From a plasmid: DNA of 64,000 bases. Location: NCBI RefSeq assembly GCF_988242995.1, contig NZ_OZ547044.1; one strand, 5' to 3'. The position numbers are program-made. Shown here piece after piece: positions 48,901 through 54,900 of this stretch (positions within the stretch are counted from its first letter, which is position 1; each line of letters opens with the position of its first letter).

Positions 48901-51900
48901 CACCTGCGCGAATATTTCCATGAACGGCTCCGCGTACATCGACTGAACAGTCAGCAGCTGCCGCGCGCAAATGCGCCCGAATATAATAAACCCGGAGATG
49001 AGCAGCAGAAGTGATTCTTATAGTCAGTGTGTCCAGGGAGGAAATTTTATGCGTATGTCTCTGATGTTTGCAGCCGTGACGCTTTTAACCGGTATTAACC
49101 TGTTTTTTATTCCGTTTCAGCCTGTTCCGGCTCTGTGGGGGGCTATCCTGGCCGTTGCTTTTGTTCTGATTAATGTCGTGGCGGATAAGCTGCGCCTCTG
49201 GAGTGGTATTGCGTGGATTATCGTTGCCGGCATCATCATAACGCTGATGCTGAAGGGGAAAGAGCCGGGTGACGAATTACGCGGGTTGATCACCGTTTTT
49301 GCTTTCCTGGCTTCGGCCTGGTACTGCGTTGTTCAGTACAGAAAAGAGCAGGGCGAATCTCAGTCCTGACCTGACCGGTACCCTTCATCTTGCTGCTGCT
49401 CTTCCTCTGGCTTTGCCTCACTTTCCTTTCACACAATCTGCTCCGGGGCCACCTTCGGCTCCTGACCCGCTGGCGCGGTTCAGTCGTCGAGCCACACTCC
49501 GCTAACCGCGAAAAGACGCGGTAAGCTCCGCCGAACCCGCTACGCGGTTTCGGGCCTGGCGGCTAGTGTCTGATGTCTGACGTCAGGGTCAACGGCAGCG
49601 CTTGCTGCGACCGTCCCGGCCGCGCCGCTTTCACCGTGCCGGCGAAGGACTGCCGGCACTCTGCGGGGCAACGCCGTTTCGCGCCCGCGCTCTTCGTCGT
49701 TGCGGCGGGTGCCTGCTCCTTTCCCCTGGTACCCGTATCACCCGTTTGAGTCCATTCGCCGGGGCTGAGACAAGCACAACCCGTCTTGCTGTCCAGGGGA
49801 CGGCAGGGCCTTTCGCAATAAATTTTTCCCGGCCATTCCGCTGCCGCTTCATTAGGCCGAAAAAAATTTCCCGCTCACCCCCGGACATCTGCACCGGGCC
49901 GTGCTCGTTTACGCCCTTGCGGCGAACGGCTCTCAAACGGGTGAAGTTAATACCAGGGGGCAGGTTCAGCAGGTCCCCGCACAAAGTCAAAACCGCGGCC
50001 CCGGCAACTCAACGGGTGATGTTCTTTAAAAATCAGGAAAAAGAAAAATGCAGGATCCTTCATTGCGAACGTATCGGATCGCATTTCTGGGAAGCAATGC
50101 CAGCGGCAATCTGCCGATGTTTACCCGGGTGCAGGCCACGACCGGAAAACGGGCGATAAAAGCGTTTATTGAACGCTGTGAACCCGTCAAAGGCTGGTTT
50201 CTGGGCGAACCGGAAGACATTACCGATCAGCTTAAGAAGGAGGAAGAAGAAGCGGGAAGCAAACCGCAGATATGAAAAAAGCAGGGTAAACCCTGCTTCT
50301 CCCACGCCGTAAAAATCGCACGAACGGTTTTTCCGGCTTCGTTAACTACCATAAGGAGTCAACTTTATGATCTTTTCTATTTTTTCACCTTCCGCAGGCG
50401 CTGTAAAGCCCCGTCGTCATTCGCGCATTCTGCGCGCAGATATCACCGCACCTGAGATTGATCCCGCTCTCAGAGCTTTCGGGCGTCATATCGCCAGAAG
50501 TCACCGCAAAGGGCGTGGTGTCCACATCCCCGCGATGAAAAATACCGCCCTCGGGCAGGTACTCCGCACGCTGGAACTGAAACGCGCATTTAACTGATGA
50601 GGTGAGCCGCCCCGCGAGGGGCGGCAACTGCAGGAAGGAGAAAACACAATGACACCGACTACCGCACAGATCATGACGGAAAATACCGTCAGCCAGACTT
50701 ACCGGGCAACTTATTCACCCGATGATAATAAATTGCGACTTTACGCATCATTACGGCTCGATGAAGAAACGTATTCCCTGATCAACAAAGCAGGCTTTCG
50801 CTGGGCGCCCAAACAGGAACTCTTTGTGGCGCCAGCCTGGACGCCGGGGCGGGAGGATGTCCTGCTTTCCCTCGCCGGTGATATCGAGGACGAGGACAGC
50901 ACCTTGTTTGATCGCCAGGAGCAGCGCGCCGGGCGGTTCAGTGACTACAGTGACCGGCGGGCGGTTGAATCGGAGCAGGCGCTTGCGCATGTTGATTCGC
51001 TGGCATCGGCTGTCCCGCTGGGACAGCCGATCCTGGTAGGCCACCACAGCGAGCGCCGCGCACGCCGGCATGCGCAGAAAATTGAGAACGGCATGAAACG
51101 TGCGGTGATGCTGTTCGAGCGCGCCGAATACTGGGAACAGCGCGCGCAGGCCTCTCTGCGGCACGCGAAATACAAGGAGCGTCCGGATGTGCGTTACCGC
51201 CGTATCAAAAAAATCGAGGCGGAATTACGCAAGTCCCAAAAGCACATTGCCCGGTCTGAAAAGTATATGACGATGTGGCGTGCGCAGACGCTCGATCTGA
51301 AAATGGCGTTACTGGTCAGTAATTATGACCATATTTATGCCTGCTTCACGCTCGACAAATACCCCCGCCCGGCAGAGAAAAGCCAGTATGAGGGCTCGAT
51401 GTCTCTCCATTCTGCCCTGTCTGAGGAGATCATTACTTTTGAACAGGCGCGTGATATTGCGATCCGCTGTCATGAGCGCACGATTAACCACCAACAGCGC
51501 TGGGTGAATCATTACCAGAACCGCCTGGCCTACGAACGCGCGATGCTCAATGAAAACGGTGGCGTTGTCACCCGAACACAGGAATTTGAACCAGGCGGGC
51601 AGGTACTGAGTCGGGGAGAATGGTTAACCATTCTCCGGGTTAACCGGAGTAAGGGGGAGGTGAGTTCAGTCGAAACGCCCGGTTATCGCTTTCTGGGCTA
51701 CAGCGGCACGATGAAACTCACGCCCGACCGTATCACGGACTACAAAGCCCCGACAGCGGAGGAGGCCAGCAACGCGAAGAAAGCGGCGAAGCGCCCACCG
51801 ATCGTCAATTATCCGGGGGAAGGGTTCCGGGAAATGACAAAAGCCGAGTGGGCGAAATTACCCGCTGATTATAAAGGCGTGCGGGGTGCTGCAGAAACCG

Positions 51901-54900
51901 AAACACACGGCGCCTATCGCTTCCGCCGGTGCATGACGCACGGTTGTACGCTCGTGAATGTGTATATCACAGACATGAAAACCGTTGAAATTCCGAAAAA
52001 ATAACAGGAAGGCTCCCCGGCATCTTGCCGGGGAGGTCAGGGAGTACATTCATGCATCATGACCTTAAACACCGTATTCAGGCGATGCGGGACAAACTGG
52101 AAGGGCGCGCCCCTGTCGCTGAAATTCAGGGTAGCTCGCAACTTTTTGTCACCCCCTCCCCGGAATGTCGCCGGCTGGTTGAGCTGGCTGATGTCCGGGA
52201 AACCGATCGCATTCTGGAACCCAGTGCCGGAACGGGCGCCATACTGCAGGCGATCAGGGATGCAGTCCCCCGGGCGAAGTGTGACGCCGTGGAGCTGCAC
52301 GCCGGGTTAGCCCGTCACCTGCAGGCGCATTTCCCGGAGGTCCGGATCTGGTGCGGAGATTTTCTCGAATATCATCCGGAGCGCCGGTATACCCGAATTA
52401 TCATGAATCCGCCGTTTAATCGCGGTGATGATATCCGACATATCCGGCGGGCATTAACTCTGCTTGAGCCTGGCGGGATTCTGACGGGCATATGTCTGGA
52501 CGGGCCGCGTCAGCAAAAGGCGCTGGAGTCCCTGGCGGACGTCTGGGAGCCATTGCCGCGGGGAACATTCACGTATACCCAGGTAGCGACCGCCATTCTC
52601 AGAATAACCGTCTGATGACACGTTAAGCCGGCGGGGCACCTGTCCCCGTCTGGCCGCGCCTCGAAAGACCGCGCGCCTGCGGCGCCGGGAAAACCGGGCC
52701 GCGCTGACGCGCCGCCCGCATTTCCTTTCCGCGTCTTCCCTGTTTGCTGCCTGCTGTCTGTCTGCTTTCTCTTCTTCTTTCTGCTGTGATGTCTCTTTTT
52801 AACCCTTAAAGGCTTTAAAAGCACACCCATACTGGACACCTTCGGCTCCCGGCCAGCTGCGCTGTCCGGTCGTCGAGCCACACTCCGCTAACCGCGAAAA
52901 GACGCGGTAAGCTCCGCCGAACCCGCAAGCGGTTTCGGGCCTGACGGCTAGTGTCTGATGTCTGAAGTCAAGGTCAACGGCAGCGCTTGCTGCGACCGTC
53001 CCGGTCGCGCCGCTTTCACCGTGCCGGCGAAGGACTGCCGGCACTCTGCGGGGCAACGCCGTTTCGCGCCCGCGCTCTTCGTCGTTGCGGCGGGTGCCTG
53101 CTCCTTTCCCCTGGTACCCGTATCACCCGTTTGAGTCCATTCGCCGGGGCTGAGACAAGCACAACCCGTCTTGCTGTCCAGGGGACGGCAGGGCCTTTCG
53201 CAATAAATTTTTCCCGGCCATTCCGCTGCCGCTTCATTAGGCCGAAAAAAATTTCCCGCTCACCCCCGGACATCTGCACCGGGCCGTGCTCGTTTACGCC
53301 CTCGCGGCGAACGGCTCTCAAACGGGTGAAGGTTATATCCAGGGGGCAGGTTCAGCAGGTCCCCGCAAAACGTCAAAACCGCGGCCCCGGCAACTCAACG
53401 GGTGATGGTTTTAAAAGGCAAAACAACGGATTAAGGAGATTCATCATGGCAGCACGTGGCGTTAACAAAGTCATTCTGGTTGGACATCTGGGACAGGATC
53501 CGGAAGTGCGTTACATGCCCAACGGGGGCGCAGTGGCCAATCTGACGCTGGCCACGTCTGAAACATGGCGTGACAAGCAGACGGGAGAGATGCGCGAAAA
53601 CACCGAGTGGCACCGTGTTGTCATGTTCGGCAAGCTCGCGGAAGTGGCGGGCGAATACCTGCGTAAAGGCGCACAGGTCTACATCGAGGGCCAGCTGCGC
53701 ACCCGCAACTGGCAGGACGATGCCGGAGTCACGCGCTACGTCACCGAGGTGCTGGTCGGGCAGAACGGCACCCTGCAGATGCTCGGCGGCCGCCGTGAAT
53801 CCGGAGTGCCTGAGAGCGCCGCGCAGCCGCAGAATCCTGCCACCCCGGCACAACCTGCTCAGGCCGCAGCTAAATCCCCGAAAGCGAAGGGCGGTAAGAA
53901 AGGCCGTCAGGATGCCGCCCCGTCTCAGCAACCGCCTCAGCCTCTCCCGGATGATTTCCCACCAATGGATGATGACGCGCCCTTTTAAACCACGATGAAG
54001 ACGCCCCGTTCAGGCGGGGCAGAAAAGGAGAAACACATGGACCATAACGTTTTGTCCCCGCTTGAATCCCTGCCGGATGGCACGTTTACCCGCGAGCAGG
54101 CTCAGATTGTCGCAGCGCAGTATCAGAATGTGGCGATTGAAGATGATCAGGGGACCCATTTTCGCCTTGTCGTCCGTCATCAGGATGACGGCAGCATGAT
54201 CTGGCGCGTCTGGAATTTTGAACCGGGCGGCGAGGACATGATGAACCGCTACATCCGGGACTACGGAGTACGCAAAACGAAGTAAGCAGTAAGAAGAAGG
54301 CCGGACAGGTGGGCTGTCCGGCAGACATTCATCAATAGCTAAGAGGTATCAATTATGTCTGCAACAGAGTCTAAGGTAAAAACTGCACCGAAAACCAGCA
54401 AAAAAACGCTTAAGTCTGCCGAAGCTGAGGCGCTTAAAGTGGCTCTCGATGCCGCACAGGTCGAGTATGTCCCGGTGACGGCACTGGTGAAGTCTCCCCT
54501 GAACGTCAGGACCATTCCCTATCCGGCGGAGAAAGTCTGTTCAATGGCAGATTCCATTGAAGCCATTGGCCTGTTGCAGAATCTGGTCGTGCATAACCTC
54601 CCGGATGGTCGCTGTGGTGTGGCTGCCGGTGGTCGTCGCCTGAAAGCGCTGCAGCTCCTGCAGAGTGAAAACCGTATCGATGCCGGATATCAGGTGATGG
54701 TGAAAAAGGTACCTGATGAACTGGCTGTTGCGGCATCAATGGCAGAAAACGAACAGCAGATGGCAATGCATCCGTCTGAACAGATCGCCGGGTTCCGCAC
54801 ACTGGCAGTGCAGGGGAAAACCCCCGCGCAGATTGGCGATTTACTGGGGTTCGGTACGCGTCATGTTCAGCGCATGTTGAAACTGACCGAACTGGCTCCC

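Follow-up and report, generated by a model that had tools for sequence, protein, structure and literature searches.

I analysed a 64,000-nucleotide (nt) stretch of plasmid DNA (contig NZ_OZ547044.1 of the RefSeq assembly GCF_988242995.1; hereafter the window), which is the leading region of an IncFII(K)-type Klebsiella conjugative plasmid. It was found that the gene for a 451-amino-acid (aa) protein of the DUF3560 family and the next gene, which encodes a 187-aa methyltransferase (MTase), are the split form of one widespread protein, since the two parts are fused in most relatives. The two split proteins are very probably functionally coupled. Two small open reading frames (ORFs), ORF75 and ORF76 (YdaB), precede the pair, and all four genes follow a repeat that resembles the Frpo element of the F plasmid (Table 1). 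An earlier note on this DNA had regarded the 75-, 76- and 451-aa ORFs, which stand before a small orphan MTase, as strong candidates for unknown inhibitors of host defence. The position in the leading region and the enrichment of these families there still make the genes anti-defence candidates. However, given that DUF3560 is fused to an MTase in relatives, the likelier anti-defence route is modification and not inhibition.

Searched exhaustively with phmmer against 1.84 billion cluster representatives, the 451-aa protein gave 3834 relatives. The best 150 of these, each the representative of a 50%-identity cluster, were compared with the 187-aa MTase as the query, and 100 of the 150 have a homologue of this MTase at their C-terminus (E-values from 1e-15 to 1e-45). 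Thus, the 451-aa protein corresponds to the detached N-terminal part of an MTase-fused protein, and the supposed orphan MTase to its C-terminal half. In a typical fused protein of 630-700 aa, residues ~3-440 make up the DUF3560-type part and residues ~470-670 the MTase. Residues ~17-450 of the 451-aa protein are collinear with the former part and the 187-aa MTase aligns with the latter, while the window has a separate gene for each, in different frames and with 47 nt between them. Pfam matches (E<=1e-3) in 116 aligned relatives include MTS in 60 and Methyltransf_25 in 22. In AFDB50, fused proteins named "Methyltransferase type 11" were found in Pandoraea, a delta-proteobacterium, and Pelobacter, and unfused DUF3560 relatives in Ralstonia, Stenotrophomonas, Bordetella, Vibrio, Planctomycetes, and Acidobacteria.

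Is the split form confined to this plasmid group? On an unrelated phage-like contig, the gene for a 456-aa DUF3560 protein overlaps that for a 198-aa MTase, and wastewater contigs have MTase remnants adjoining DUF3560. The order of ydaB, DUF3560, and MTase is kept in E. coli IncF plasmids, and the adjacency of DUF3560 and MTase is also retained in Salmonella plasmids. Two enteric variants, which were found only on short contigs (2.5-2.7 kb), have apparently been re-fused by deletion. As for the fused genes, one lies in an IncP-like establishment region with KlcB, KleA, SSB, ParA/ParB, and KorA-KorB nearby (metagenome contig L007, JGI), and another lies in an integrative element with RadC, a resolvase, and an integrase nearby (metagenome contig L004, ENA). 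Thus, the link with the entry regions of mobile elements reaches well beyond IncF.

The 187-aa protein has the motifs X (LFVTP), I (EPSAGTG), and IV (NPPF) in that order, which is the adenine-N6 type. G511, G513, N570-P571-P572, and the downstream H581 are invariant across 88 sequences. The AlphaFold2 (AF2) model is a compact Rossmann fold with a predicted local distance difference test (pLDDT) score of >95, and the chain ends shortly past the core. Gamma-class DNA amino-MTases typically have a motif X of this kind (FxTP). Residues 22-109 of the gamma-class enzyme M.TaqI align with the family profile (E ~1e-8), so that the motifs X (TP), I (EPxxGxG), and IV (NPPF/Y) are shared over ~90 residues. 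The motif order and the (N/D)PP(F/Y) sequence are those of a gamma-class N6-adenine DNA MTase, but the protein has no target-recognition domain (TRD) of its own. While M.TaqI has a C-terminal TRD of ~180 aa, the 187-aa protein stops once its Rossmann core is complete, and neither the AF2 model nor the M.TaqI alignment revealed a TRD or anything matching the TaqI C-terminal domain. Judged from its sequence, the MTase looks catalytically intact but incomplete.

What does this MTase resemble most? In PADLOC, the MADS DNA MTase mad2 ranks first (6e-19) and type II MTases come next. Its PHROG matches are the MTase portions of giant phage proteins (9133, 15406, and 11358; E-values down to 5e-31). 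The family profile aligns equally well with M.TaqI and with the ribosomal RNA (rRNA) adenine dimethyltransferase Dim1/KsgA, the latter being the best solved-structure match (E ~3e-9). The DUF3560-MTase pair might act on the host through the methylation of rRNA, transfer RNA, or protein, or else in plasmid DNA processing such as strand conversion or priming, with ORF76 as a nucleoid or single-stranded DNA (ssDNA) accessory. In line with this, NCBIfam models of Erm, KsgA, and PrmC also match the MTase, Frpo elements also prime complementary-strand synthesis, and a plasmid homologue of the DNA polymerase III theta subunit is encoded shortly upstream. Moreover, a 2026 preprint renamed the neighbouring ParB-like YfjB as HerB and proposed that it reprograms host transcription, rather than being an anti-defence factor. 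I consider a role in the host or in DNA processing improbable, however, because the matches to rRNA and protein MTase models are all far below the curated cut-offs, the closest relatives by score are MTase modules of giant phages and mobile elements annotated as DNA methyltransferases together with mad2, and motif X aligns with that of M.TaqI.

The partner of the MTase matches the Pfam family DUF3560 (PF12083) at residues 88-204 with an E-value of 3.4e-35, and this match is present in all 116 aligned relatives. The 451-aa protein thus belongs to a defined family, while ORF75 matches no known one. In the AF2 model, which was built from the 116-sequence alignment (pLDDT 94; predicted template modelling score, pTM, 0.83), an N-terminal alpha/beta domain (residues 17-81) is followed by three basic helices of ~30-40 residues each (residues 86-210) and a small insert. 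The C-terminal half consists of a long helix (residues 264-302) and then a beta-rich region (residues 318-440). The model has no significant fold match in the PDB, and PDB profile searches match the MTase part only. Among NCBIfam, PHROGs, and PADLOC, DUF3560 matches only PHROGs of unknown function. R89, R165, R184, R185, R194, H288, R292, and E296 are invariant, and the loop from G125 to S134 (GQPILVGHHS) is near-invariant across relatives of ~40-50% identity. The protein has an isoelectric point (pI) of 9.25 and a net charge of +12, the helical core having a charge of +11. The invariant arginines and the basic charge would make DUF3560 suited to nucleic-acid binding. The homologue on pO157 is transcribed, its RNA being up 5.1-fold with ciprofloxacin alongside the rest of the leading-region block, and its protein has been detected by proteomics. 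A literature search found only five papers in which DUF3560 is mentioned, and its function is the subject of none of them.

Databases name the 451-aa protein YdbA or "hydrolase". An assignment as an HD hydrolase was tried and rejected, as there is no domain match. If DUF3560 were itself such an enzyme ("hydrolase" or "HD hydrolase") with its site in the GQPILVGHHS loop, the MTase would be merely a frequent neighbour. The conservation of the loop and of H288, R292, and E296 would fit, as would the relatives without an MTase and a Salmonella plasmid that retains DUF3560 beside a frameshifted MTase gene. Nevertheless, this is very improbable, since neither Pfam nor NCBIfam gives a hydrolase or HD-domain match, the predicted long helical bundle with small flanking domains is unlike any solved enzyme, and the "hydrolase" names are unreviewed database labels.

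How might the DUF3560 protein and the MTase work together? The interval may be the promoter-proximal part of a four-gene early ("zygotic") operon encoding ORF75, YdaB, DUF3560/YdbA, and the MTase. The 187-aa protein would be the catalytic adenine-N6-type half, and the basic helical core and the beta-rich C-terminal region of DUF3560 would bring the TRD-less catalytic domain to DNA. The pair would add methyl groups to the plasmid as it enters, and possibly to the transferred single strand, and the methylation would keep the restriction enzymes of the recipient from cutting. This would be anti-restriction by modification, as with M.EcoGIX of pESBL. YdaB might serve as a nucleic-acid-binding accessory, while ORF75 has no assigned part. 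I infer that the genes are co-transcribed, that the split halves cooperate physically or functionally, that DNA is their substrate, and that restriction is thereby averted. The mechanism as a whole, namely a Frpo-driven early operon whose core is a two-part adenine MTase protecting the entering plasmid from restriction, seems to me to have about an even chance of being right.

The model of protective methylation comes from the analogy with M.EcoGIX and from the enrichment of orphan MTases encoded by the transferred strand (T-strand) in leading regions. M.EcoGIX methylates single strands and protects the incoming pESBL from restriction (Fomenkov et al. 2020, PMC7736820); after establishment of the plasmid it falls silent. 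Samuel et al. 2024 describe leading-region MTases as enriched and T-strand-encoded. M.EcoGIX and M.BceJIII, which are leading-region DNA MTases specific for single strands, provide a working model for the module. The enzymes differ in their build: M.EcoGIX is a beta-class single polypeptide with a DPPY motif, whereas the window MTase has the X-I-IV order, NPPF, no TRD, and a DUF3560 partner. A gene annotated as "DNA methylase" lies upstream of klcA in the window, at the position reported for the M.EcoGIX homologue in F. From this synteny and the product name, it is probably the M.EcoGIX homologue, and the plasmid would then carry two different, unrelated entry-phase MTases.

The MTase scores best against segments inside giant phage proteins, and another likeness is thus to the adenine-MTase modules found in the polyvalent proteins of phages and conjugative elements, P1 DarB among them (Iyer et al. 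2017, PMC5512222). In polyvalent proteins, the MTase depends on the non-catalytic or motor domains joined to it, and its presumed task is to modify the DNA as it enters (PMC5512222). The module in the window differs from them in having no SNF2 helicase, metallopeptidase, or ArdC-N domain; the attached part is DUF3560, and two genes are used. The name DUF3560 is absent from the text of that survey, and the match of the MTase to the DarB-like PHROG itself is negligible (E = 0.07). A bolder proposal would be that DUF3560 is a previously unrecognised nucleic-acid-targeting module replacing the TRD and that the bare MTase core broadly methylates the transferred strand. The pair would then represent a second, mechanistically distinct class of entry-phase MTases across plasmids, integrative elements, and phages of several phyla, and YdaB and ORF75 would be new entry-phase factors. 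This extension is tentative and, on the whole, rather unlikely.

Several points weigh against protective methylation by a two-part enzyme. Methylation, DNA binding, and restriction protection by the module are not reported in the literature searched. By sequence, the MTase core is as near to the rRNA adenine dimethyltransferases (Dim1/KsgA and Erm) as to DNA MTases, and RNA or protein substrates are thus possible. In the AF2 model of the concatenated DUF3560 and MTase of the window (pLDDT 90.6), both domains are confident and the junction at residues 445-480 is of low confidence, and in natural fusions the two parts are joined by a proline-rich linker. Since the pTM is 0.66, as compared with 0.83 for DUF3560 alone, and the linker is proline-rich, no rigid interface is predicted, and the halves might not associate. 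In about a third of the representatives no MTase is fused to DUF3560, and one DUF3560 contig has no MTase within 1.7 kb. Salmonella pCFSAN008789 (CP075051.1, 7031-7584) has an intact DUF3560 gene, while its MTase sequence is spread over two frames and none is annotated, owing either to a frameshift that made it a pseudogene or to an error in sequencing. DUF3560 may thus have a function of its own, and the GQPILVGHHS loop could be an active site instead of a binding element. Finally, F and pESBL conjugate well without the module.

The position of the genes bears on the operon part of the mechanism. As the earlier note had supposed, the ORFs lie directly downstream of a genuine Frpo homologue, which recurs in the window in copies of up to 97% identity. 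Copy 1 aligns over ~440 nt with the Frpo region upstream of ssb in the F plasmid. When its gene-complementary strand was folded as ssDNA, a long imperfect hairpin of -128.7 kcal/mol was obtained (z = -7.3), and no shuffled sequence folded as well. The features of Frpo/ssi class 1 were found here, that is, the homology to the F Frpo, the long hairpin in the transferred strand, and strand-templated genes directly downstream. ORF75 starts 17 nt past copy 1, at the same position as ssb relative to copy 2. By synteny with F, the origin of transfer (oriT) would be placed to the right of the window, outside it. It would thus be the minus strand, the template for these genes, that is transferred. The hairpin of copy 1 is expected to form in the transferred minus-strand DNA, with rightward transcription into ORF75. 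A consensus scan from the repeat to the end of the MTase gene revealed no excess of sigma-70-like promoters and no intrinsic terminator on the plus strand. The hairpin behind ORF75 was not scored as an intrinsic terminator, and the one between ORF76 and the DUF3560 gene has no T-run behind it and was not called as a terminator. The four genes may be co-transcribed from copy 1 while the plasmid is single-stranded in the recipient.

Copies 1 and 2 are 3386 bp apart and flank the four-gene module as a 3.39-kb direct-repeat unit. The same Frpo bracketing of the module was found in E. coli plasmids. In F and pESBL, the two plasmids with measured early transcriptomes, the module is absent and only one Frpo-type element precedes ssb. 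Recombination between the repeats may have led to gain or loss of the module, which would explain the presence/absence polymorphism. By tblastn, no paralogues of ORF75 or ORF76 were found behind the other Frpo copies in the window. In a megablast search with positions 49000-53500, many Klebsiella IncFII-type conjugative plasmids matched at 100% identity, and this block is kept at >=80% as one unit in at least 2544 PLSDB plasmids. The RefSeq and GenBank annotation of identical plasmids shows the same four genes.

Are the small ORFs true genes? In comparisons with diverged homologues, taken from an IncFIB plasmid of Salmonella and from a plasmid of Serratia, the ratio of nonsynonymous to synonymous substitution rates (dN/dS) is 0.19-0.58 for ORF75, 0.16-0.35 for ORF76, and 0.09 for the 451-aa gene. 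Third-position changes are in excess. ORF75, ORF76, and the 451-aa gene are all under purifying selection. Together with the matching annotation, these values confirm the three ORFs as they had been predicted. The alternative that ORF75 and ORF76 are non-coding was ruled out by the dN/dS values and the conserved length.

ORF76 is very basic (pI 12.0, charge +11) and is preceded by a strong ribosome-binding site. At least 5000 plasmids, from Klebsiella, E. coli, Shigella, and Salmonella, carry YdaB, and the length of 76 aa is kept in nearly all of the 120 protein clusters listed (of 208). The Pfam family HU-CCDC81_euk_1 weakly matches 21 of 31 ORF76 homologues over ~36 residues at E<=1e-3 (best 1e-5). 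YdaB is similar to the HU and CCDC81 HU-domain proteins in its small size, its strong basicity, and this weak but recurrent match. It differs from them in its 76-aa length and in the failed profile comparison with E. coli HU-alpha, to which hhalign assigned a probability of 0.3%. ORF76 has no sequence match in the PDB and none in NCBIfam, PHROGs, or PADLOC. YdaB is probably a small nucleic-acid-binding accessory protein, with low confidence in this assignment.

ORF75 is near neutral (pI 6.2) with an acidic C-terminal tail and has no match in Pfam, NCBIfam, PHROGs, or PADLOC. It was found in 2836 PLSDB plasmids, 2631 of which are from Klebsiella, and in only 33 protein clusters of a 5.8-billion-protein database. 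The E. coli IncF plasmid pABW_A33b (NZ_CP067301.1, 4264-4404) has ORF75 DNA that lacks the ATG and contains internal deletions, and despite this decay the ydaB, DUF3560, and MTase genes are retained intact. By its distribution and this decayed copy, ORF75 is a small, lineage-restricted protein, apparently dispensable in an E. coli IncF plasmid. In Serratia marcescens pE36_2 (AP028508.1, 4932-6454), an ORF75-like (39%) and ORF76-like (51%) pair is followed by a DUF4942 protein (E = 3e-49) and not by DUF3560. Thus, the pair can move independently of the DUF3560-MTase enzyme. No Frpo homologue was found upstream of the Serratia pair by blastn. The small ORFs beside distant fused homologues are unrelated to ORF75 and ORF76.

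Could ORF75, ORF76, and the 451-aa protein each be a stand-alone inhibitor of restriction, CRISPR-Cas, bacteriophage exclusion (BREX), or other systems, which acts by binding or mimicry independently of the MTase? They lie behind a Frpo homologue, are templated by the T-strand, and stand among klcA, ardA, and psiB; the annotation bears out that these anti-restriction and anti-SOS neighbours, the first being KlcA-like, run in the same direction. The sizes of ORF75 and ORF76 are typical of anti-CRISPR proteins, and the Serratia pair beside DUF4942 suggests that they can act apart from DUF3560. The families of YdaB and DUF3560 are strongly enriched in leading regions, and Samuel et al. 2024 suggest that many such families are anti-defence. 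However, stand-alone inhibition is unlikely for several reasons. Pfam, NCBIfam, and PHROGs give none of the three proteins a match to any family known to act against restriction or CRISPR, nor are similarities to known inhibitor families given in the DIAMOND and Foldseek comparisons of Samuel et al. 2024, as far as its tables list them. None of them matches in PADLOC either, which contains models of defence systems only. The MTase fusion in two thirds of the relatives of the 451-aa protein argues for the role of an enzymatic partner, and ORF75 has decayed in the E. coli IncF plasmid while the remainder of the module is kept.

The charge of the proteins also speaks against mimicry. ArdA and Ocr are highly acidic DNA mimics. 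The earlier note had proposed a check for DNA-mimic folds, but the pI values of the 451-aa protein, ORF76, and ORF75 do not indicate a strongly acidic surface, and the strong basicity of DUF3560 and ORF76 is the opposite of what DNA mimics have. A KlcA-like gene and ardA share the neighbourhood and the orientation of the module, but ArdA, KlcA/ArdB, and Ocr-type proteins have no similarity to the module proteins in sequence or fold. The proposal on HerB warns that not every gene of a leading region need be anti-defence. Guilt by association is thus weaker than had been assumed.

In Supplementary Table 1 of Samuel et al. 2024, the family containing YdaB is number 1 and DUF3560 number 28 among the families enriched in leading regions. 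Both are labelled as uncharacterised there, and many such families are suggested to be anti-defence. The idea of the earlier note thus restates a published expectation. The searches against anti-CRISPR and anti-restriction sets, as given in that table, list essentially no match for the two families. The table also contains Foldseek matches to "Methyltransferase domain protein", on which the available text makes no comment. The new points here are that the 451-aa protein and the MTase would form one split enzyme, that the non-catalytic part has no solved structural relative, and that ORF75 appears dispensable. The module occurs in thousands of clinical Klebsiella and E. coli IncF plasmids, its genes belong to two of the most abundant uncharacterised leading-region families, and a published survey links some replicon types carrying it to KPC carbapenemases. 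The split-enzyme view turns three unknown candidates into one question: do DUF3560 and the MTase methylate the entering DNA and thereby defeat restriction? If so, the robust host range of these plasmids would be explained in part, and DUF3560 would be a DNA-targeting domain of a new kind. Otherwise, the module would be a further sign, beside HerB, that leading regions do more than counter defence.

The coordinates of the module and of the other features in the window are given in Table 1. According to the annotation, the MTase gene is followed on the plus strand by ssb, DUF905, the ParB-like yfjB, psiB, psiA, and hok. The KlcA-like gene, ardA, ssb, psiB, and psiA share the strand of the four genes. 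Both the theta-subunit homologue and a 106-aa ORF sit shortly upstream of Frpo copy 1.

Table 1. Positions of the four-gene module, Frpo-like repeats, neighbouring genes, hairpins, and CRISPR spacer matches in the window
Feature	Coordinates	Strand	Remarks
ORF75	50048-50275	+	75 aa
ORF76 (YdaB)	50367-50597	+	76 aa
DUF3560 protein (YdbA) gene	50649-52004	+	451 aa
MTase gene	52052-52615	+	187 aa; S-adenosylmethionine-dependent amino-methyltransferase core
Frpo-like element copy 1	49473-50030	-	558 bp; predicted single-strand promoter
Frpo-like copy 2	52859-53415	-	Upstream of ssb; 97% identical to copy 1
Frpo-like copy 3	60730-61234		~90% identical to copy 1; internal deletion
Frpo-like copy 4	63450-63997		97% identical to copy 1; runs into window end
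"DNA methylase"	44509-45210	+	Annotation of identical plasmids
DUF1380 gene	Between "DNA methylase" and KlcA-like gene in annotated order	+	
KlcA-like antirestriction gene	47361-47789	+	
ardA	47832-48338	+	
DNA polymerase III theta-subunit homologue	48760-49014	+	NCBIfam 3e-27, slightly below cut-off
106-aa ORF	49049-49369	+	Weak PADLOC 2TM-effector match, E = 0.013
ParB-like YfjB homologue	54355-56412		
GC hairpin (GCAGGG-TAAA-CCCTGC)	50281-50296	+	Immediately 3' of ORF75 stop; kept in Salmonella and E. coli versions
GC-rich hairpin GCCGCCCC-GCGA-GGGGCGGC	50606-50625	+	Between ORF76 and DUF3560 gene
Hairpin	52013-52035	+	Within the 47-nt spacer from DUF3560 gene to MTase gene
Spacer matches	49947-49978, 51177-51208, 51657-51688, 52409-52440, 52733-52764, 63324-63355		
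Spacer matches, continued	49687-49718, 53072-53103, 60948-60979, 63663-63694, 58459-58490		

Two small overlapping ORFs (106 and 92 aa) were noticed between Frpo copies 3 and 4 (62211-62799). By eye, they resemble a toxin-antitoxin pair with a helix-turn-helix antitoxin.

Published spacers of the chromosomal type I-E CRISPR arrays of K. pneumoniae (PMC6965323, Table 3) match the window with 0-1 mismatches. Exact matches lie within the DUF3560 gene and within each of the four Frpo copies, and a match with one mismatch was found in the MTase gene. Further matches lie in the DNA downstream of the MTase gene and in hok/sok. One spacer labelled "DUF3560" in PMC6965323 in fact falls in the 3' end of Frpo copy 1. 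Thus, hosts do target this region.

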